A stretch of DNA of 64,000 nucleotides from an uncultured Bacteroidales bacterium (GTDB lineage: Bacteria > Bacteroidota > Bacteroidia > Bacteroidales > VadinHA17). A model generated the notes under the pieces. The model was not told the DNA's origin. It made no database searches and saw only the letters and a program-made list of their open reading frames with translations. Of this stretch, positions 1 through 10,537 are shown one piece after another (within the stretch, counting starts at the first letter, position 1; each line of letters starts with the position of its first letter). The position numbers and the translations under genes are program-made. The stretch is taken from the NCBI GenBank assembly GCA_963789465.1, contig CAWBLL010000019.1:782173-846172 (forward strand). The letters run 5' to 3'.

Positions 1-50
1 AAGAAGAGCATTGCCAATATCCGCCAACGGTAATTTCCGGTTTTACTCAT
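1..50 (-). CDS. 5' end of MFS transporter (ExuT-like hexuronate transporter), runs off window start
   Basis: Reverse strand from ATG at 50 reads MSKTGNYRWRILAMLF, typical of the first helix of ExuT-type MFS proteins; 36 bp downstream of gnd in the same orientation. Only 16 codons visible. Confidence 0.55.
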   Translation of the reverse strand, partial: MSKTGNYRWRILAMLF

Positions 51-86
51 AAAAGGTTAACTTAAGGTTATTTTCAAAGTTCAGGC

Positions 87-1541
87 TTATACATTATACG
101 TTGAAGAAGCGGTAGTCCCACCACGTCCGGTCCAGTTGGTATGGAAGAATTCACCTCGAGGTTTGTCTGTCCGCTCATATGTATGAGCTCCGAAATAATC
201 GCGCTGGGCCTGCAAAAGGTTGGCAGGCAGCCTTTCGCAGCGATAACCGTCGTAATATCCAAGTGCAGAGGCTATTGCAGGGACAGGTATGCCGTTCAAT
301 ACTGCGGTTGAAACGACTTTTCTCCATCCGGCTTCAGCCCCTCCAACCTTAGTCCTGAAATAGGGATCAAGAAGAAGGTTGGTAATTGAGGGATTATTTG
401 CAAAAGCCTCCTTTATCTTCCCCAGGAAGGCAGATCTGATTATGCATCCACCTCTCCACATAAGCGCTATGCCTCCATAGTTGAGGTTCCATCCATATTC
501 CACTGCTGCCGCTTTCATCAGTGCATAACCCTGTGCATATGAGACTATCTTGGAAGCATAGAGTGCATCCCTGATATTATTGATAAACTCTGTTCTGTCA
601 CCTTCAAACACAGGAGTAGGGCCATGCAGTATCCCGGAAGCAAGGACACGCTCATCCTTTACAGCAGAAAGACATCTCGAAAAGACTGCTTCCCCGATCA
701 GAGTAAGAGGAATTCCAAGGTCAAGAGCTGCGATACCAGTCCACTTGCCTGTTCCTTTTTGTCCGGCGGTGTCAAGGATCTTATCCACCAGAGGGCTTCC
801 GTCGGTATCTTTATAAGCCAGAATATCACGGGTAATCTCGATCAGATAGCTGTCCAGTTCGCCTTCATTCCACTCCCTGAAAATCTCATGCATCTCTTCA
901 GCATTAAGCCTGAGGAGATCACGCATTATCTGATACGCCTCAGTAATAAGTTGCATATCGCCATATTCTATCCCGTTATGCACCATTTTTACAAAGTGTC
1001 CGGCGCCATTTTCACCAACCCAGTCACAACAAGGCGACCCATCCTCAACTTTTGCTGCAATTGCCTGTAATATGGGTTTTACAATTGGCCAGGCACCAGG
1101 TGATCCTCCGGGCATTATTGAAGGCCCGTGCAAAGCTCCCTCTTCACCTCCCGATACCCCCGTGCCGATGTACAGAAGTCCTTTGCTCTCAACCAGCGCA
1201 GTTCTTCTGTTGGTGTCAGGGAAATGCGTATTTCCCCCGTCAATGATAGTGTCTCCTGGTGACAACAGGGGCAGGAGCGTGGCAATCATTTCATCGACGG
1301 CATCTCCCGCTTTAATCATCATCATAACTTTCCTCGGACTCGAGAGGGTCTTAACCAATTCCTCAATAGAGTGTGTGCCGGTTATGTTTTTGCCCCTGGC
1401 TCTGCCGCTGAGAAAGTCATCGACTTTCTTTGTGTGGCGGTTGTAAACGGAGACTCTGAAACCCTTGCTCTCCATATTGAGTACAAGGTTTTCTCCCATA
1501 ACAGCTAATCCTATTAATCCGATGTCAGAAAGTGTATCCAT
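87..1541 (-). CDS. gndA: NADP-dependent 6-phosphogluconate dehydrogenase (decarboxylating)
   Basis: IGLIGLAVMGENL Rossmann start, GHFVKMVHNGIEYGDMQ, WRGGCIIRS, QAQRDYFGAHTYER motifs; 484 aa. Confidence 0.97.
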   Translation of the reverse strand: MDTLSDIGLIGLAVMGENLVLNMESKGFRVSVYNRHTKKVDDFLSGRARGKNITGTHSIEELVKTLSSPRKVMMMIKAGDAVDEMIATLLPLLSPGDTIIDGGNTHFPDTNRRTALVESKGLLYIGTGVSGGEEGALHGPSIMPGGSPGAWPIVKPILQAIAAKVEDGSPCCDWVGENGAGHFVKMVHNGIEYGDMQLITEAYQIMRDLLRLNAEEMHEIFREWNEGELDSYLIEITRDILAYKDTDGSPLVDKILDTAGQKGTGKWTGIAALDLGIPLTLIGEAVFSRCLSAVKDERVLASGILHGPTPVFEGDRTEFINNIRDALYASKIVSYAQGYALMKAAAVEYGWNLNYGGIALMWRGGCIIRSAFLGKIKEAFANNPSITNLLLDPYFRTKVGGAEAGWRKVVSTAVLNGIPVPAIASALGYYDGYRCERLPANLLQAQRDYFGAHTYERTDKPRGEFFHTNWTGRGGTTASSTYNV

Positions 1542-1563
1542 GAGTATGAATTTAATTATGTTA

Positions 1564-2550
1564 TTATGTCATTTTATTGTAGTAACCCCGCACAATATCA
1601 TCCATAACATGGCTTGTTCTTGCACCTGAGATACCGGTACTCGGTGATTCCCCTTTCCCTTCAAGGGCCCTCACGATCTTTTCAATCAGGTAATACTGGA
1701 CATGCTCAGGACGTTCGTTCCGATATTCCATCCGGCCTGACTCATTTGCGACCACTATTGGCTCAAAACTGAAAGCAGAGAACTTAATAAATCCTTTTGT
1801 GCCTGTTATCTCAATGGTATCACGGTTGCTTTCCGCTGAAGCATTGAAACACCAGGTGCCGGTTCCGGCTATATTGTCAGGAAATTCGAACTCTGCACTC
1901 ACAAAATCTTCGGCTTTGTAAAGACCTCCCTGGTTCAGCACTAACGACTGAACCTTCTGTATGGATCCGAAGAGAAAGTCAAGGTAATCGAGCTGATGAC
2001 AGGCAAGGTCAAAGAAATGCCCACCCCCTGAAATAGCAGGATCGACACGCCATGGTAGCCTTCCGGCTTTTTCATCTTCAGAGGGACTCTTGAAGAGCTG
2101 CATCTGGAGAAAACGCACCCTCCCGATGCTTCCGTTTTCGATGAACTCCTTTACCTTGAGAAATCCTGGGAGCGCGCGTCTGTAATATGCCACGAATACC
2201 GGTATTCCTTTCTTTTCAGCAGCTTCATTGATCCGTTGACATTCGGCATGATTCACTGCCATAGGTTTTTCAATGTAAACAGGTTTTCCGGCCTCGATAG
2301 CCGCAATGGCATATTCCATGTGACTGCCCGGAGGTGTGGCGACATAAACAGCATCAATATCCTTATCACTGATTAGGTCAAATCCGGTAGAATGGACTTT
2401 TGGTACATTGTGTCGCCGTGCATAATCTTCGGCAAGCGCTTTATTCCTTCTGGTCACAGCAATAAGCCTTGATCCTTCAATTTTATTGAATGCGGGCCCG
2501 CTCTTGAGTTCTGTGACATTTCCACATCCTATGATTCCCCAGTTTATCAT
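1564..2550 (-). CDS. Gfo/Idh/MocA family oxidoreductase (cytoplasmic, substrate unknown)
   Basis: WGIIGCG, VYVATPP, YIEKPMA, GGGHFFDLACH motifs; no signal peptide. Confidence 0.9.
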   Translation of the reverse strand: MINWGIIGCGNVTELKSGPAFNKIEGSRLIAVTRRNKALAEDYARRHNVPKVHSTGFDLISDKDIDAVYVATPPGSHMEYAIAAIEAGKPVYIEKPMAVNHAECQRINEAAEKKGIPVFVAYYRRALPGFLKVKEFIENGSIGRVRFLQMQLFKSPSEDEKAGRLPWRVDPAISGGGHFFDLACHQLDYLDFLFGSIQKVQSLVLNQGGLYKAEDFVSAEFEFPDNIAGTGTWCFNASAESNRDTIEITGTKGFIKFSAFSFEPIVVANESGRMEYRNERPEHVQYYLIEKIVRALEGKGESPSTGISGARTSHVMDDIVRGYYNKMT

Positions 2551-2570
2551 ATTATTGGTATCATGTTAAT

Positions 2571-3845
2571 TTAGCCGTTCAGTCTTTCCCCTGATGTCCA
2601 TAATCCGAGTGCCGGATTTGATATATAGAATATTTCTTCGCCATCACTCATCCTGTTGAAACCTTCATTCATGTTGTCAGGATTGTATTTTTTCAACATT
2701 TTACTGAGATCCTGGTATCTGAAATTTACCGACTCAATCTCTTCCTGTGATATGAAGCCCGGGCAGTAAGTTATGGAAAACCTGCTTTCAGAACTGCCAT
2801 GAATGAGGTGGGCAGCCGCACTCAGGTTATTTCTCAGTTCTTCATTTTCCCCAAGGGATTTCAGTGTTTCAGGTGTTCCCCTGTAACCGTATTTTCTTAT
2901 CAACCGGTCAATTTCCCTGTCTTCACCGAATTCTTTCAGCCCGGGAGCCAGTACAATGAGTTCACCATTGTCTGCCATAGCCATTCTGGTTCGGTAAATG
3001 CTCTTATTTCCCAGCCAGGTGCTCTTGAATTCTGAAGGATTGAGATACACGATAACTTTTTTCAGGGGTTTGTCCAGCCTTGAAAAGTTCACCTTTATGG
3101 AGAGTTCGGAAGCCAGCCGGAATACCTCTTCATCATCCCCTATATAGAGGCCCCGGATAACAAGCTTCCCGTCACTTTCACGTCCGATCACGGTCTGTAC
3201 ATAAACTACAGGAAGATGAGACATAAACTTTGAATCGGCATAATTGAGCAGGTCCCTTACCGGATTGTGGTACTTGCCCATTATCCGCTCCATTCCATAT
3301 ACTGCTCCCAGGAAGTGACTTTTGTTAATACCCTCAGGCCCGCCTGTGCCGACCAGAAGGTTTTTGTTATAACTCGCCATTCCTATTACTTCATGCGGAA
3401 CAACCTGTCCAACCGAGAGTATAAGATCATGCCCCCCGTTGAATACCAATCTGTTCAGTTGTGCGGGCCAGGAATAATCCAGTGCTCCATTGGTGATATT
3501 TGAAACAAAGTCACCAGGAACAGTACCTATAGTAACAACATCCTTCCTCCAGTCATGAACACGGAACAGACCGCGGGGAACACCATGAAACATGATCTCC
3601 AGCTGATCATCAGACATTTTAACGTGAGTGCCCAGAGCCGGAAGAATGTCCTTGAGCCTGTCTTTATAGTAATTGTATATCAAGGTTGTCAGTTCACCGG
3701 CCCTGGAATGAAAACGGGTAAAATCAGGGGGAACAACGAGAACTTTTTTCACTGTACCCAGTTTGTCCAGTGCAGTGCAGAGACCCTGTTCCAGATCCTT
3801 ACCGTCAATTACTGTATTTTCAGAACCTGACTGGAAGTATATCAT
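2571..3845 (-). CDS. LarA-family (nickel-pincer, DUF2088) alpha-hydroxyacid racemase/epimerase, probable D-mannonate/D-gluconate 2-epimerase
   Basis: PPDFTRFH, ALGTH, VHDWR, VPHEVIG, YNKN, NKSH motifs match LarA catalytic and cofactor residues; substrate inferred from position between uxuB and gnd. Confidence 0.8.
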   Translation of the reverse strand: MIYFQSGSENTVIDGKDLEQGLCTALDKLGTVKKVLVVPPDFTRFHSRAGELTTLIYNYYKDRLKDILPALGTHVKMSDDQLEIMFHGVPRGLFRVHDWRKDVVTIGTVPGDFVSNITNGALDYSWPAQLNRLVFNGGHDLILSVGQVVPHEVIGMASYNKNLLVGTGGPEGINKSHFLGAVYGMERIMGKYHNPVRDLLNYADSKFMSHLPVVYVQTVIGRESDGKLVIRGLYIGDDEEVFRLASELSIKVNFSRLDKPLKKVIVYLNPSEFKSTWLGNKSIYRTRMAMADNGELIVLAPGLKEFGEDREIDRLIRKYGYRGTPETLKSLGENEELRNNLSAAAHLIHGSSESRFSITYCPGFISQEEIESVNFRYQDLSKMLKKYNPDNMNEGFNRMSDGEEIFYISNPALGLWTSGERLNG

Positions 3846-3963
3846 AACTAATATTCCGTTTTATAGCATTACAAATTTCCTCTTTCTTATCCCAAATAAT
3901 ATCAGGCAACAGGAGTTCTTCTCCTTTCAACCTGTCTCTAAGCTTAGACCTGCAGTATATAGT

Positions 3964-4807
3964 CTACACTCCGCTATATGCACTGAATCCGCCGTCGACA
4001 GGAATGACTACACCGGTCACAAAATTAGACATCTCAGACACAAGATAAAGCAGTGTGCCTGTTAATTCTTCAGGTACAGCATAGCGTTCCATCGGTGTGC
4101 CCTTCAGTACCTTCAATCCCCTGGGGGTTGGTCCGCCAGTTGTTTCATCTATCATGAGGAACCTGTTCTGATTTGTAAGCAGGAAGCCGGGAGCGATGGC
4201 ATTTACCCTGACTCCCGTTTTGGAAAAGTGTACGGCAAGCCATTGTGTGAAGTTATTTATAGCCGCTTTTGCAGCGGAATAAGCTGCAATTTTTGTGAGG
4301 GGGCGGTAAGAATTCATCGATGATATATTTATTATCACTCCGGATTTCTTTCTGACCATGTCGGTAGCAAAAACCATGGAGGGTATAAGTGTGCCTTTAA
4401 AATTAATGTCAAAAACCTTATCAAACCCTTCAGATCTGCAGGCCGAAAAAGGTGTCCTCAAGATTTTCGTTCACGGTTCCATCCATCTTTTCGACCTTCG
4501 TGGTTCCGGCCGGTGAGTTTCCGCCCGCTCCATTTACCAGTATATCAATGGGACCAAATTTATCATTGATCTCTTTTTTTGCCGCAATCAGAGAGGCTTT
4601 GTCCAGTACATTGGCTGAAATCCCAAGGGTGGCAATTCCCAGATCTTTTTCTATATCTGACGATACCCGAAGGGCGGCTTCCCTGTTCAGGTCAAGGACA
4701 GCGCATTTTACACCCTGTGCTGCGAGTGACCTTGCCATCACTGAACAGATTATCCCGGCACCGCCGGTAATGACTGCAACTTTATCCCTTAAATTAAATT
4801 CATTCAT
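3964..4807 (-). CDS. uxuB: SDR family D-mannonate oxidoreductase (fructuronate reductase); one apparent +1 frameshift near 4432
   Basis: Two ORF-track pieces join: VAVITGGAG...LVNGAGGNSP and INISSM...YSAAK...VNAIAPGF; removing one T in CAG ATC TGA AGG gives QIEGFDKVF. Start taken as ATG 4807 next to the uxaC stop. Confidence 0.85.
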
Positions 4808-4808
4808 G

Positions 4809-6221
4809 TCAGCTTGGTTTTTTATTAAAGTTAAAATAATTCCTCGCATTTTTATAGGATATACCCTCGATCAAGGGTTTAAGCAGGTCATCATCATCAG
4901 GTATGAGGCCTTTTTCAACCTGTTCGCCAATGAAATTGCAGGCAAGCCTCCGGAAATATTCATGCCTGGGGTAGGAGAGGAAGCTTCTGGAATCCGTCAC
5001 CATTCCGACAAATCTTCTCAGAAGGCCCAATGATGAAAGGTCTTTCAGATGTTTTTCCATTCCGTTCATCTGATCATGAAACCACCATGCAGCACCGTAC
5101 TGGACCTTCATGGGATAGGAGCCGTCATTGAAATTGCCGGCCATTGTAATCATCATTTCATTGTCAGAAGGGTTCAGATTGTAAAGGATTGTTCTTGCAA
5201 GCTGATCAGTATTGTCGAGCGCATCGAGAAACCTCGACATTTTAACTGCATCCTGAGGAACACCGATCGAATCCCAGCCCGTATCCGGGCCCATCTGCCT
5301 GAATTTCCTCGAATTGTTATTTCTCAGGGCACCTACGTGAAATTGCTGGGTCCAGCCTCGCTCATGATTCATCTTGCAAAGCTCAATCATTACTGCCGAT
5401 CTGTATTTTTCGCTATCCTCAGCTGAAACTTCGTTTCCTTTGAGTAGCTTCCTGAATACGGAATTTACCTCTGAGGGGGTACAGTCGGCAAAATAGAAGC
5501 GGTCAAGACCATGGTCGGAAAGACGACAGCCTGTTTCGTGGAAGTATGTATGCCGCCGGTGAAGAGCTTCGATAAGGTTATAGAAAGTCTTGATCGTGGT
5601 TCCGCTGGCATGTCCGAGTTGATCCAGGTATTTTTTAAACTTTTCAGGATCACTTGTTTTCAATACGTTATCCGGTCTGAAGGTAGGAAGCACAGTTATC
5701 TCAAAAGATTTCTTAAGGCTGATGTGATGCTCAAGTGAGTCGGTAGGATCATCCGTAGTGCAGATTATCTCAGCATTCATATTCCTTATAATGGATTTGA
5801 TGCTGAATTCTTTTGTTCTGAGCATGGCAGTTGCCTTTTCATATATTCCCTCTGCAGTAGACGGAGAAAGAAGCTCATAAATATTGAAATACCGTGCCAG
5901 TTCCAGATGGGTCCAGTGATATAACGGATTTCCCAGGGTAGCCGGAACAGTCTCTGCCCATTTCCGGAACTTGTCAATGTCAGATGCATTGCCTGTGCAA
6001 AATCTTTCAGATATACCGTTACTCCGCATTGCGCGCCATTTGTAGTGATCTCCCTCAAGCCAGGCCTGGGAGAGATTTCCAAAATGCCGGTCCTCTGCGA
6101 TCATTGCAGGTGAGAGATGACAATGGAAATCTATTATGGGCTGATTTTCAGCATATTTATGATACAGATTAACCGCAGTTTTATTTCCCAGCAAAAAATT
6201 ATCATTAATAAATGACTTCAT
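4809..6221 (-). CDS. uxaC: Glucuronate (uronate) isomerase
   Basis: PIIDFHCHL, GDHYKWRAMR, NPLYHWTHLEL, GAAWWF, GMVTDSRSFLSYPRHEYFRR motifs; 470 aa. Confidence 0.97.
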   Translation of the reverse strand: MKSFINDNFLLGNKTAVNLYHKYAENQPIIDFHCHLSPAMIAEDRHFGNLSQAWLEGDHYKWRAMRSNGISERFCTGNASDIDKFRKWAETVPATLGNPLYHWTHLELARYFNIYELLSPSTAEGIYEKATAMLRTKEFSIKSIIRNMNAEIICTTDDPTDSLEHHISLKKSFEITVLPTFRPDNVLKTSDPEKFKKYLDQLGHASGTTIKTFYNLIEALHRRHTYFHETGCRLSDHGLDRFYFADCTPSEVNSVFRKLLKGNEVSAEDSEKYRSAVMIELCKMNHERGWTQQFHVGALRNNNSRKFRQMGPDTGWDSIGVPQDAVKMSRFLDALDNTDQLARTILYNLNPSDNEMMITMAGNFNDGSYPMKVQYGAAWWFHDQMNGMEKHLKDLSSLGLLRRFVGMVTDSRSFLSYPRHEYFRRLACNFIGEQVEKGLIPDDDDLLKPLIEGISYKNARNYFNFNKKPS

Positions 6222-6455: not shown

Positions 6456-7622
6456 ATGAATCACTCGAGGACAATATTCGTATTTCTTTTGCTGATATCT
6501 TGTTTGTCAGTCAGGTCGCAAAACAGGCAAGCTGCATCCTTCCGGGATGACCTTACGAAGAATGATATTAAAAAAGTTCTGAAAACTATAGCCGACTGGC
6601 AGATCAGGACGCCGCTCGTTCACCCGGCAGCTGACTGGACCAATGCTGCCCTTTATGCAGGAATGGTCAAGTGGGCTGGCATATCGGGCGATGAATCATA
6701 TTTTGAATGGTTGAGAGGCAAGGCAGAGGAAAATTCCTGGTCTTACAAGCAGCCGGATCAGCCTTTGGGCAGGTATCACGCAGATGATTATTGTGTTGGT
6801 CAGACCTACGTTGAACTATACCGAAAATATCATGACATAAAAATGATCGGGCCGGTACGTAAACATCTCGATAATATACTTGATGATCCTGCAACAGGGA
6901 GCCTTGAATTCGTTTATACCGACGATTACTGGCCGACCCAGCGCTGGGCCTGGTGCGATGCAATTTTCATGGGTCCCACGGTCTGGACAAAGATGGCAAA
7001 TGTTACAGGACAAAAGAAGTATCTTGACTTTATGTTTCAGGAGTTTAAGGCCACAACGGATTACCTGTACGATAAGGAGGAACATCTTTATTACAGGGAT
7101 TCACGATATTTCGGCATGAAAGAAGCCAACGGCACAAAAGTCTTCTGGGGAAGGGGGAACGGTTGGGTATTGGCAGGACTACCCGTGATATTAAATGAAC
7201 TTCCGTCAGGCTATGAGCATAAAGATTATTTTGAGGAAATATTTAAAGATATGGCTTCAAAAATACTTTCACTTCAGGGCCCTGACGGCTGCTGGCACGC
7301 TAGCCTGCTTGATCCCGGGAGCTATCCCAATCCTGAAATGAGCGCCACTGCCTTTTTTGTATATGGCTTTGCCTGGGGAATCAATAACGGATATCTCGAC
7401 AGGGAGACTTATCTTCCTGCAATCATCAAAGGATGGAAATCGATGGTGGCAGATGTTGACCCTGATGGTAAGGTTGGTTTCATTCAACCAATCGGTGCTG
7501 ATCCCAAGAAAGTCACCAAAGAGATGACCGAAGTATATGGTGTCGGTGGTTTTCTGATGGCAGGGACTGAAATAACCAGACTTATAGATAACGGGATCCT
7601 GAAAAGCAAAAGAGAAAAGTAA
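6456..7622 (+). CDS. Glycoside hydrolase family 105 (unsaturated rhamnogalacturonyl/glucuronyl hydrolase, YteR-like), secreted
   Basis: Signal peptide; YHADDYC, WAWCDAIFM, FWGRGNGW, QPIGADP, YGVGGFLMAG motifs; upstream of kduI-kduD. Confidence 0.9.
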   Translation: MNHSRTIFVFLLLISCLSVRSQNRQAASFRDDLTKNDIKKVLKTIADWQIRTPLVHPAADWTNAALYAGMVKWAGISGDESYFEWLRGKAEENSWSYKQPDQPLGRYHADDYCVGQTYVELYRKYHDIKMIGPVRKHLDNILDDPATGSLEFVYTDDYWPTQRWAWCDAIFMGPTVWTKMANVTGQKKYLDFMFQEFKATTDYLYDKEEHLYYRDSRYFGMKEANGTKVFWGRGNGWVLAGLPVILNELPSGYEHKDYFEEIFKDMASKILSLQGPDGCWHASLLDPGSYPNPEMSATAFFVYGFAWGINNGYLDRETYLPAIIKGWKSMVADVDPDGKVGFIQPIGADPKKVTKEMTEVYGVGGFLMAGTEITRLIDNGILKSKREK

Positions 7623-7827: not shown

Positions 7828-8664
7828 ATGAAAACGGAAATAAGATATGCGGCACATCCCGATGATTTCAAAAAATACGATACGGCAAAAATCAGGGAAC
7901 AATTTCTGGTAGAGAATATCTTTATCCCCGACGAGATCTCTCTTGTCTATTCAATGTACGACCGTTTTATCGTTGGCGGAGCGATGCCGGTAACATCGGA
8001 ACTTTCGCTGACCAGCCCGGATGAGCTGAAATCGGGACAATTTCTTGAAAGAAGGGAGATGGGTATCATTAACGTGGGGGGCGTATCTGAAATAGAAGCC
8101 GGAGGACAGCTCTACAATATCGGATTCAAGGAGGCATTATACCTTGGGAAAGGAACCTTTGACGTAGTATTTAGGTCAGTCGATCCCCGTAAACCCGCCA
8201 GACTTTATATAAATTCAGCACCCGCTCATTATATCTGCAGTTCACGTAAGATCACCATGGAGGATGCGGAAAAAACGGTGCTTGGCAACCCTGAATCATC
8301 AAATCATCGCACTGTTAATAAGCTGCTGGTAAACAGTATTATAGAGACCTGCCAGCTTCAGATGGGCATGACGGAACTCAGGACCGGAAGCGTGTGGAAT
8401 ACGATGCCTGTTCATACACATAACAGGCGTATGGAGGCCTATTTTTACTTTGAGGTTCCGGAGCAACAGGCCATCTGTCACTTTATGGGATCTCCCGACG
8501 AAACCCGGCATATCTGGATGCGTAATGAACAGGCAGTACTGTCGCCTTCATGGAGCATTCACAGCGCAGCAGGGACATCCAATTATACTTTTATATGGGG
8601 AATGGCGGGAGAAAACCTGGATTATGGTGACATGGATGTAAGACAACCAGATACACTTAAGTAA
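7828..8664 (+). CDS. kduI: 5-dehydro-4-deoxy-D-glucuronate isomerase
   Basis: DRFIVGGAMP, FLERREMGIINVGG, CQLQMG, WNTMPVHTHNRRMEAYFYF, SPSWSIH, MAGENLDYGDMD motifs. Confidence 0.96.
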   Translation: MKTEIRYAAHPDDFKKYDTAKIREQFLVENIFIPDEISLVYSMYDRFIVGGAMPVTSELSLTSPDELKSGQFLERREMGIINVGGVSEIEAGGQLYNIGFKEALYLGKGTFDVVFRSVDPRKPARLYINSAPAHYICSSRKITMEDAEKTVLGNPESSNHRTVNKLLVNSIIETCQLQMGMTELRTGSVWNTMPVHTHNRRMEAYFYFEVPEQQAICHFMGSPDETRHIWMRNEQAVLSPSWSIHSAAGTSNYTFIWGMAGENLDYGDMDVRQPDTLK

Positions 8665-8766: not shown

Positions 8767-9561
8767 ATGACGGATTTATTTGATTTAACAGGAAAGGTAG
8801 CCCTTGTAACAGGAGGAACACACGGAATTGGTCTCGCAACAGGCATTCTGCTGGCTAAAGCAGGTGCCAGGGTTTGTGTAAATGACCTCAGTGAGGATAA
8901 GCTTCAGATATGCAGGGAAAGTTTTAAAAAGGAAGGACTGGAGGTGTTTGCCCTGAGATTTGATGTTACTGATGAAAACGATGTTGACAGGGGTGTCGGT
9001 ATCATTGAAAGGAAGGTGGGACCTGTGGATATACTTGTAAATAATGCAGGAATAATAAAACGCATTCCGATCCTGGATATGTCGGTATCTGACTTTAAGC
9101 AGGTGATCGATGTCGATCTGGTTGCGCCCTTGATTGTCTCCAGGAGGGTAGCCCCTGGGATGATCAGCAAACGTTCCGGAAAAATTATCAATATGTGTTC
9201 AATGATGAGCATATATGGTCGTAATACCGTATCAGCCTATGCCTCTGCAAAGGGGGGGCTGAAGCTGCTTACCCAGAATATGACATGCGAATGGGCAAAA
9301 TACAACATTCAGATTAACGGGATCGGACCCGGATACATCGCTACTGCTCAAACAGCCCCTATCAGGGAGAACGGACATCCTTTCAATGACCTTGTCATGA
9401 CCCGAACACCTGCTGGCAGGTGGGGAGAACCGGAGGATGTGGCGAATGCGGTACTGTTTCTTGCATCAAATGCAAGTAATTTTGTCAATGGTCATATTCT
9501 CTTCGTGGATGGAGGAATATTGGCCAATTTCGGATATGTAAAGGGTGAAAATGATCTTTAG
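8767..9561 (+). CDS. kduD: 2-dehydro-3-deoxy-D-gluconate 5-dehydrogenase (SDR, gluconate 5-dehydrogenase family)
   Basis: ALVTGGTHGIG, LVNNAGII, YASAKGG, NGIGPGYI, RTPAGRWG; directly downstream of kduI. Confidence 0.85.
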   Translation: MTDLFDLTGKVALVTGGTHGIGLATGILLAKAGARVCVNDLSEDKLQICRESFKKEGLEVFALRFDVTDENDVDRGVGIIERKVGPVDILVNNAGIIKRIPILDMSVSDFKQVIDVDLVAPLIVSRRVAPGMISKRSGKIINMCSMMSIYGRNTVSAYASAKGGLKLLTQNMTCEWAKYNIQINGIGPGYIATAQTAPIRENGHPFNDLVMTRTPAGRWGEPEDVANAVLFLASNASNFVNGHILFVDGGILANFGYVKGENDL

Positions 9562-9610: not shown

Positions 9611-10537
9611 TCAGCCTTTATTATCCGGATTATCAGGATGGTCGTCAGAATATGGTTTTGCATAAAGGTCTTCAACTCTCACCCTGCTGATTTCAGGATC
9701 AGTGCTGATTATCTCGCTGGTTATATCCTCCCTGGCTTTTCCATTAAAATAGAGAATACAGGAAAATAAAGGAATCAGAGGCATTGTAAGTGCACCTGCC
9801 AGGGCCGAGAGAATTAAAAATAATGGATTGTTGACCATGTTGACAATTTCAGATGTCTCTCCAGGATTAAAAATTGTCTTTATGAAACTCCCTGTGAAAG
9901 GAAGCAGGATTATCCCTGACAAGATCAGCGACAGAACAATAAGTATGATGATGAATACGGCCACCCATCCAATGTTGGCCCAGAAATTTCTGTGAGCCAG
10001 CGTGATGGTCCTCCTGATAGTCTGGCTTATATTTGGTCCTTCAACCATCATCACGGGTAATATGAAAAGATACAGGGTCATGATATATAAAATTGAAAAA
10101 AACACTCCCACTACAAAAAGCAATATACCCAGTGCAATGGCAATTGAAGCAGCAACTGCCAGTAATACCATGATTATAAGATAAGGTATAAAATACTTCA
10201 TAGATGCGATTACCCCTGCAAAAAAACTGTTTTGTGTGTCGAGAGGACTGAAAATCACATAGTACTGAAGAATAACATTAAAGAACAGATTTACTATTGA
10301 GATTATCAGGATGGGAACGATCACCGCCTTTAATTTTTCCAGTATGAGCATGGGATCAGTGACTGTCGAAAGATCCTGCAGATTGACAAATGTGGAAACA
10401 TATTGCAATACCAGTGACATGGCAAATGACAGAATAAAAAGAGGCAGGAATTTTTTTTTGTAAAAATCCCATAATGAATTCATTGCACTGTCAATATTGT
10501 GAGGCTTATAAAGAGGATGATTGCTGAATTGATCCAT
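9611..10537 (-). CDS. Hypothetical multi-pass membrane protein (about 6 TM)
   Basis: 308 aa with long hydrophobic stretches; GPNISQTIRRTITLAHRNFW resembles membrane-anchor domains of glycerophosphodiester-phosphodiesterase-like proteins. Confidence 0.7.
   Translation of the reverse strand: MDQFSNHPLYKPHNIDSAMNSLWDFYKKKFLPLFILSFAMSLVLQYVSTFVNLQDLSTVTDPMLILEKLKAVIVPILIISIVNLFFNVILQYYVIFSPLDTQNSFFAGVIASMKYFIPYLIIMVLLAVAASIAIALGILLFVVGVFFSILYIMTLYLFILPVMMVEGPNISQTIRRTITLAHRNFWANIGWVAVFIIILIVLSLILSGIILLPFTGSFIKTIFNPGETSEIVNMVNNPLFLILSALAGALTMPLIPLFSCILYFNGKAREDITSEIISTDPEISRVRVEDLYAKPYSDDHPDNPDNKG

Follow-up and report, generated by a model that had tools for sequence, protein, structure and literature searches.

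We analysed a window of 64,000 nucleotides (nt; C19:782173-846172 of the genome, contig CAWBLL010000019.1) from an uncultured Bacteroidales bacterium, at the start of which lies a hexuronate gene cluster containing a homologue of LarA. A preliminary description of this DNA had reported a tight minus-strand run uxaC-uxuB-LarA-Gfo/Idh/MocA-gnd-MFS, and had proposed that D-mannonate is converted there by a nickel-pincer epimerase to D-gluconate and passed on to Gnd instead of UxuA. The list of open reading frames (ORFs), together with hidden Markov model (HMM) scans, confirmed that this run is real and comprises:

4809..6221, minus strand: uxaC, glucuronate/galacturonate isomerase, 470 amino acids (aa) (Pfam PF02614, 667 bits; NF002794, 616 bits)
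3964..4849, minus strand: uxuB, SDR-type fructuronate reductase/D-mannonate oxidoreductase, split into ORFs 4430-4849 and 3964-4461 (NF006132)
2571..3845, minus strand: LarA homologue, group 18, 424 aa (NF052594, 651.3 bits)
1564..2550, minus strand: Gfo/Idh/MocA NAD(P)-oxidoreductase, accessory member of the cluster (Pfam PF01408, PF22725 and PF02894)
87..1541, minus strand: gnd, long-type NADP-dependent decarboxylating 6-phosphogluconate dehydrogenase, 484 aa (TIGR00873, 766 bits)
1..50, minus strand: MFS sugar-acid transporter, the first 50 nt of its gene (full gene C19:780933-782222, 429 aa)

The order and the families of these genes stand as first described, except that uxuB is not a single ORF, a one-base insertion splitting it, and that just 50 nt of the MFS gene fall within the window. 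The MFS protein scored 223 bits, under the cut-off, with the model of the D-galactonate-transporter subfamily (TIGR00893), and the profile scan found no NCBIfam model at cut-off for the Gfo/Idh/MocA protein. What had been missed is that the run continues on the same strand past the window edge, with four further genes, which encode a regulator of the LacI family, a tagaturonate epimerase of the UxaE family (Pfam, 170 bits), a pyridoxal phosphate (PLP) enzyme of the DegT/DnrJ/EryC1 type and a kinase of the PfkB family (C19:776166-777245). The whole is a ten-gene same-strand hexuronate cluster (uxaC, uxuB, larAH18, gfo, gnd, MFS, lacI, uxaE, degT-like, pfkB), of which the window covers the first half; the four genes from lacI on, and all but the first 50 nt of the MFS gene, are located just beyond the window. 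Its intergenic gaps are 1-118 nt. A terminator scan found no minus-strand terminator-like sites between the cluster genes, and scans of the intergenic regions for sigma-70 promoters, terminators and inverted repeats found none above background. The gene for the PLP enzyme (C19:777278-778462), located between those for UxaE and PfkB, accompanies the PfkB gene in only a small number of close relatives (L026, L041 and L043).

By its sequence, the LarA homologue is a clear member of LarA homologue (LarAH) group 18. It matches NF052594, the model for a 'nickel-dependent putative hexonate epimerase' (cut-off 500 bits), over profile positions 2-410 of 411, and gives no more than 30 bits with malate-racemase models; with NF052594, Thermotoga maritima gave matches below the cut-off only and Corynebacterium glutamicum none. 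Pfam PF09861 (Lar_N) scored 26.8 bits against a cut-off of 23.3. In a phmmer search of the PDB sequences the sole match was 4NAR, the Thermotoga GntE2 (E = 2.7e-37, residues 16-386), and no structure of a lactate or malate racemase was found at E <= 0.01. In an IQ-TREE phylogeny of 29 sequences, with references from the supplement of Desguin et al. 2020 (PMC7583248), the protein fell inside the group 18 clade with 100/100 support, apart from groups 19 and 20. Its nearest relatives there, at 57-66% identity (57.5% for the diatom member), come from Melioribacter, Tannerella, acidobacteria and diatoms, and it is 29% identical to GntE2 (group 20) and 28% to GntE1 of C. glutamicum (group 19), which form separate, well-supported clades. 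The protein, likened in the preliminary description to Thermotoga GntE, thus stands apart from the lactate and malate racemases, and is not an orthologue of either Thermotoga GntE or C. glutamicum GntE1, group 18 being a sister of the GntE groups.

All motif residues pointed out earlier are there (PPDFTRFHS, VHDWRK, VPHEV, YNKN and NKSH). In an alignment with GntE2 and group 18, the catalytic residues D41, H74, H151 and K281 correspond to D72, H108, H174 and K298 of LarA, and R44, K161 and H177, which would bind the nickel-pincer nucleotide (NPN), correspond to R75, K184 and H200 of LarA and to R41, K164 and H180 of GntE2; E152-V153, W276 and N280 are also retained. The group 18 signature (D R H H E V K H V W L N K S A A L I H S) was matched at the positions checked, the equivalent of its I220 (V196, in 'NPVR') being placed by eye, and the 'EV' loop and the 'W-L-x-N-K' and 'S-x-A-A-x-L-I-H-x-S' stretches agree with it. 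The gene is the only one of the LarA family in the genome, and its product is predicted to be an NPN-dependent hexonate 2-epimerase acting on D-mannonate/D-gluconate or on their 6-phosphates.

Desguin et al. 2020 (PMC7583248) described group 18 as 'putative hexonate epimerase' and proposed isomers for group 19. Melioribacter roseus and Tannerella forsythia, both cultivable, are among the carriers of group 18 genes. The commonest neighbours of group 18 genes in that study, the set of which included Tannerella forsythia, encode an SDR, a 6-phosphogluconate dehydrogenase, a ribokinase-family kinase, an MFS transporter, UxaC and KduI, and all six neighbour types occur in or beside the cluster described here. 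A follow-up of 2024 showed that LarAH15 of Phytophthora nicotianae is a narrow-spectrum D-gluconate/D-mannonate epimerase with a Km of 9.4 mM and a kcat of 111 per s. The primer used to clone LarAH15 encodes M-A-TLLFAEG, which matches the beginning of the LarA domain in P. infestans PITG_09435, a protein listed under group 18. Group 18 thus very probably has an assayed member, LarAH15, placed there indirectly through PITG_09435. GntE1 and GntE2 also act on free mannonate.

As had been noted, uxuA, larB, larC, larE and a gluconokinase gene are not in the window; matches in the genome, if any, lie elsewhere on contig C19. A profile search of the genome found all three cofactor genes, clustered as larC-larE-larB at C19:1651587-1654466, and a second larE at C19:748589-749359; LarC (485 bits), LarE (291 and 312 bits) and LarB (300 bits) all scored over their cut-offs. 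The second larE adjoins genes for a 775-aa heavy-metal P-type ATPase and for cysteine/methionine metabolism (C19:748538-751834, 33 kb before the window). Across the order we sampled 151 evenly drawn Bacteroidales genomes, mostly one per family, of which 32 were LarAH18-positive (31 over the NF052594 cut-off and one partial match) and 119 negative. LarC was detected in 23 of the 32 positives and in 2 of the 119 negatives (Fisher p about 1e-17, not corrected for phylogeny). The positive genomes without LarC (Ni_insertion) are G005, G018, G049, G061, G065, G081, G108, G109 and G134, several of them at least 97% complete; either they have another route of nickel insertion, or the gene was missed.

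Canonical uxuA is absent from the genome. Its sole UxuA homologue, a 383-aa protein with a twin-arginine translocation (TAT)-like leader, passes the subfamily model NF003027 and reaches 185 bits against the TIGR00695 cut-off of 199.55, where canonical Bacteroidales UxuA proteins score 379-605 bits. The gene for this divergent protein adjoins one for a ManD-like enolase-superfamily protein (453 aa; the pair at C19:1794249-1796774); both proteins have twin-arginine-like leaders and are below equivalog cut-offs, and the pair lies among genes for TAT-leader Gfo/Idh/MocA and xylose-isomerase-like TIM-barrel proteins. Nor is there a classical gluconokinase gene in the genome. The SKI-type model (TIGR01313) gave no match, and the best candidate of the FGGY type was rejected as a xylulokinase-like protein (under the XylB cut-off), with 183 bits against the gntK_FGGY cut-off of 648. 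No long-type gnd other than that of the cluster is present in the genome, which elsewhere has a short NAD-type gnd and two zwf genes.

A candidate for the phosphorylation step is the PfkB-family kinase of the cluster, which would supply the kinase that the preliminary description could not find. No curated model exists for its family, the closest resemblance being to 2-keto-3-deoxygluconate (KDG) kinases. We rejected the possibility that it is KdgK: with the same model, the true KdgK, encoded beside eda, scores 498 bits and the cluster kinase 157. Indeed, of the 32 LarAH18-positive genomes 24 have an orthologue of the cluster kinase (57-80% identity), whereas the 119 negatives, 22 of which have UxuA, have none (p about 2e-21); this absence argues that the protein is not KdgK. 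In at least 11 families the kinase gene is directly beside that of LarAH. Of the eight positives that lack it, seven carry, immediately upstream of LarAH, a gene for a pyrophosphate-dependent phosphofructokinase (PPi-PFK)-family protein, one for an unclassified HAD-family protein, or both, and the eighth is an 82%-complete metagenome-assembled genome (MAG). The PPi-PFK-family gene (NF010675, 371 bits) and a gene for a 292-aa HAD-like protein with no NCBIfam match were seen at loci L102, L106, L107, L112, L125 and L130, and also at L035, L040 and others. This PFK-like/HAD module may be a non-orthologous displacement of the pathway kinase. The distribution of the kinases strongly ties the phosphorylation step to the epimerase and Gnd.

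The coupling is also positional. In a scan of close relatives, with one genome per species, we analysed the best 80 of 160 relatives (72-84% identity), nearly all of them Bacteroidales MAGs from lakes, fens and sediments, and counted neighbours within 10 kb of LarAH. In these 80 loci, uxuB was found in 71-73, uxaC in 68, Gfo/Idh/MocA and gnd in 66 each, MFS in 59, UxaE in 58, and KduI and KduD in 54 and 52, respectively. Across the order, the LarAH18 module is present in about a fifth of the sampled families, and in 29 loci from different families the recurring order was uxuB, (UxuA), kinase module, LarAH, (Gfo), gnd. In 66 of the 80 close loci and in most of these family-level loci gnd follows LarAH, and Gfo/Idh/MocA is found in only about 5 of the 29. 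Canonical UxuA is present in 11 of the 32 positives and in 22 of the 119 negatives, and in six genomes it is encoded in the same cluster as LarAH. Because 11 of the 32 carriers also have canonical UxuA, the shunt is a branch that sometimes coexists with the dehydratase and not a strict replacement of it; the preliminary 'instead of UxuA' is true of this genome but not of the family. In G108 (L125, G108:C28 8977-11757) LarAH and gnd form one open frame of 926 aa with a lysine-rich linker, and at L041 uxaC and uxuB form one of 786 aa; these joined frames could be gene fusions or stop codons missing in MAGs.

From the gene identities, family membership, catalytic residues, cofactor genes, and phyletic and positional coupling observed here we infer which substrates are used, in which direction, and whether epimerase or kinase acts first, as follows. 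The MFS transporter would import glucuronate and galacturonate, and UxaC would convert these to fructuronate and tagaturonate, respectively. UxaE would turn tagaturonate into fructuronate, which the SDR-type UxuB would reduce to D-mannonate. The LarA homologue, provided with NPN by the LarB, LarC and LarE of the genome, would invert C2 of D-mannonate by the hydride-transfer mechanism of LarA, giving D-gluconate; the diverged PfkB-family kinase would phosphorylate gluconate to 6-phosphogluconate, and Gnd would decarboxylate this to ribulose-5-phosphate, returning the reducing equivalent spent by UxuB, so that the route would be redox-neutral. We put the probability of a shunt from mannonate to 6-phosphogluconate and the pentose-phosphate pathway, as such, at about 0.8. 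Its version with the epimerase acting first is the most economical reading, and one that we consider reasonably probable. The earlier interpretation, hexuronate via gluconate to Gnd, is thus supported by the family of the LarA homologue, the presence of larBCE, the lack of a canonical uxuA, and the coupling of gnd to LarAH across the order.

The preliminary description had further suggested that glucuronate enters this route rather than KDG and the Entner-Doudoroff pathway. The shunt part of that suggestion gains support, but a kdgK-eda pair (C19:183460-185253; Eda, 151.5 bits, is just below its cut-off of 156) is still there, and serves the KduI/KduD branch. The genes of that branch, and one for a GH88 hydrolase, lie divergently from the cluster:

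6456..7622, plus strand: GH88 unsaturated glucuronyl hydrolase, divergent (Pfam PF07470, 292 bits)
7828..8664, plus strand: kduI, 5-dehydro-4-deoxy-D-glucuronate isomerase (NF002091, 417 bits)
8767..9561, plus strand: KduD/gluconate-5-dehydrogenase-type SDR (NF005488, 420 bits, cut-off 369)

A gene for a 308-aa membrane protein with a weak GPDPase_memb match (window 9611-10537, minus strand) adjoins the KduD gene in 47 of the 80 related loci.

The preliminary description also knew of no characterization of the route in Bacteroidota. In the literature searched we found no paper linking nickel-pincer enzymes to uronate use in this phylum, but the route itself is known, from a proposal of 2012 for Thermotoga (gnd-uxaE-uxaD-gntE-gntK, as described in PMC6978723 and PMC3750489) and from Lactobacillus suebicus (Valk et al. 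2020, PMC6978723). The T. maritima operon gnd-uxaR-uxaE-uxaD-gntE-gntK follows the same logic as the cluster here, combining gnd, a tagaturonate epimerase, a fructuronate reductase, a LarA homologue and a kinase, but the kinase is of the FGGY family where here it is PfkB, and the reductase is UxaD where here it is an SDR-type UxuB. Its GntE2 (TM0442, 4NAR, group 20) shares with our protein the superfamily and the catalytic and NPN residues, and differs, besides its distance in sequence and its separate clade, in having E-S where our protein has E-V in the loop, and G instead of N before the catalytic lysine. T. maritima also keeps kdgAK-uxuBA, whereas this genome is without canonical uxuA. With group 18 as published, the protein shares its score over the NF052594 cut-off, the clade, the signature, the 57-66% identity and the list of context genes; this Bacteroidales member, however, sits in a larger cluster of ten genes, with UxaE, LacI, Gfo/Idh/MocA and the DegT-like enzyme.

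In L. suebicus the shunt was shown biochemically: extracts convert mannonate and ATP to 6-phosphomannonate, and interconvert 6-phosphogluconate and 6-phosphomannonate (PMC6978723). This isomerase-phosphoketolase hybrid pathway has in common with the route proposed here UxaC, UxaE and UxuB leading to mannonate, then 6-phosphogluconate and its decarboxylation by 6-phosphogluconate dehydrogenase, and in both ribulose-5-phosphate formation would be redox-neutral and UxuA, KdgK and KdgA not used. There, however, the kinase acts first and the epimerase on the phosphorylated acid; here candidate genes are visible, and the two steps may run in either order. The kinase and epimerase genes of L. suebicus are named in no later paper found in our literature search. 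LarAH group 4 (Lactobacillus) was considered as a link to L. suebicus and set aside as irrelevant, its members being putative malate racemases. Compared with the Ashwell isomerase pathway (UxaC-UxuB-UxuA-KdgK-Eda) of Escherichia coli and Bacteroides thetaiotaomicron, the upper half, UxaC and UxuB, is common, whereas from mannonate on, with no canonical mannonate dehydratase here, UxaE, LarAH, the kinase and Gnd would take over. The cluster showed neither UxaB nor UxaA, and no genome-wide search for them was made. Published work already covers the family, the function predicted for it, its gene context and the idea of the pathway, and the NCBI name of the protein agrees with this; new here are the wide occurrence of the module in Bacteroidales and its exclusive partnership with a kinase.

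Several observations weigh against the route with the epimerase first. We know of no gluconokinase in the PfkB family, and the PfkB kinase of the cluster is most like KDG kinases. LarC was not detected in 9 of the 32 LarAH18-positive genomes. The assay data bearing on group 18 are those for its probable member P. nicotianae LarAH15, function in the bacterial and Bacteroidota members being predicted, and the Km of that enzyme for mannonate is high (9.4 mM). The proposed route gives no role to the conserved Gfo/Idh/MocA or DegT-like genes. The genome is about 92.5% complete, and the absences reported above are therefore not proof. The gene order kinase, epimerase, gnd fits a route in which the kinase acts first, and L. 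suebicus extracts phosphorylate mannonate first and do not epimerize free mannonate to gluconate (PMC6978723). With the steps so reversed, PfkB would be a mannonate kinase and the LarA homologue a 6-phosphomannonate 2-epimerase, with 6-phosphogluconate going straight to Gnd. Besides having been measured in L. suebicus, this route would suit the order uxuB, PfkB, LarAH, gnd, which recurs in most family-level loci with a PfkB gene, the single LarAH-gnd frame of the low-quality genome G108, and the high Km of LarAH15 for free mannonate. Nevertheless, LarAH15 does turn over free D-mannonate, at 111 per s, as free mannonate is also used by GntE1 and GntE2; no phosphate-binding feature was identified in the LarA homologue at the sequence level, and gene order is weak evidence. 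To our knowledge, no LarA-family enzyme has a phosphorylated substrate. We consider the reversed order unlikely, although the present data cannot separate it from the order with the epimerase first. Equally doubtful is the wider proposal that PfkB is a mannonate (or gluconate) kinase, that the PPi-PFK-like and HAD proteins do the same job, and that the group 18 LarA is the 6-phosphomannonate 2-epimerase of the L. suebicus activity; if true, a LarA enzyme would for the first time be seen to act on a phosphorylated substrate, and two sugar-kinase superfamilies would gain a new class of substrate.

The epimerase might instead work on another substrate or in another direction, making mannonate from gluconate for a dehydratase, or interconverting some other pair of C2-epimeric hexonates, such as L-gulonate/L-idonate or galactonate/talonate; the presence of gnd in the cluster would then be a matter of housekeeping. 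Those who described the family went no further for group 18 than 'putative hexonate epimerase', with isomers proposed for group 19, canonical uxuA is within the LarAH cluster in six sampled families, and a Gfo/Idh/MocA oxidoreductase gene lies between LarAH and gnd. The cluster gnd, as the only long-type gnd in a genome with two zwf genes, could also serve the normal oxidative branch; for housekeeping, however, the second, short-type 6-phosphogluconate dehydrogenase is available. This genome, moreover, has no canonical uxuA to receive mannonate, and UxaC, UxaE and UxuB all converge on D-mannonate; the adjacency of gnd and the LarAH-specific kinase are kept across families, and the narrow spectrum of LarAH15 is centred on mannonate/gluconate. 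Such a role thus seems to us very improbable.

A further difficulty for the route from mannonate to Gnd is that the deposited uxuB is frameshifted, with no second copy in the genome; if the frameshift is genuine, mannonate could not be made here. The two ORFs, of 139 and 165 aa, cover positions 4-124 and 122-280 of NF006132, and the likely true start codon is at 4807-4805. In a DNA alignment with seven relatives, one additional base at window 4432-4433 (minus strand) breaks the frame: the window reads cagatCTgaaggg, and the relatives read cagatCgaaggg or cagatTgaaggg (cagatYgaaggg), that is, 'ATC T GAA' here and ATY GAA there. On this basis the cluster could be decaying in this strain, with fructuronate reduction interrupted and the downstream genes being relics or serving imported gluconate or mannonate only. 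The insertion is indeed outside any homopolymer, and no other SDR-type uxuB is present, the best paralogue being 33% identical. All remaining genes of the cluster, however, are intact, and in 71 of 71 relatives matching both halves these are in a single ORF, which reads ...TFFGLQ(I/T)EGFDKVF... at this place. The inserted 'CT' is at a wobble position that is C or T in the relatives, which fits a consensus artefact of mixed strains. Moreover, the single-copy and normally indispensable purB (C19:768486-769830, which is about 12.3-13.7 kb ahead of window position 1) has a +1 insertion of the same kind, dividing it into ORFs of 334 and 142 aa, which makes an assembly indel likelier than decay of uxuB. 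Decay of the cluster thus appears very unlikely, and the break in uxuB is most likely an assembly indel and not a dead gene. A gene near purB (C19:767654-768410) also appears split; together these splits suggest that the assembly carries indel errors, a point that bears on every apparent pseudogene in this genome.

The shunt from mannonate to 6-phosphogluconate would carry the hexuronates of pectin, glycosaminoglycans and hemicellulose into pentose phosphate at no net redox cost, which would be relevant to anaerobic fermenters in sediments, fens and guts, and to engineered pectin fermentation. Two thirds of the LarAH18 carriers are without canonical UxuA, and standard pathway reconstructions would therefore wrongly deny them the use of glucuronate or galacturonate. 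With the epimerase strictly coupled to one or the other of two kinase modules, there are concrete candidate genes for a step that is genetically unassigned.

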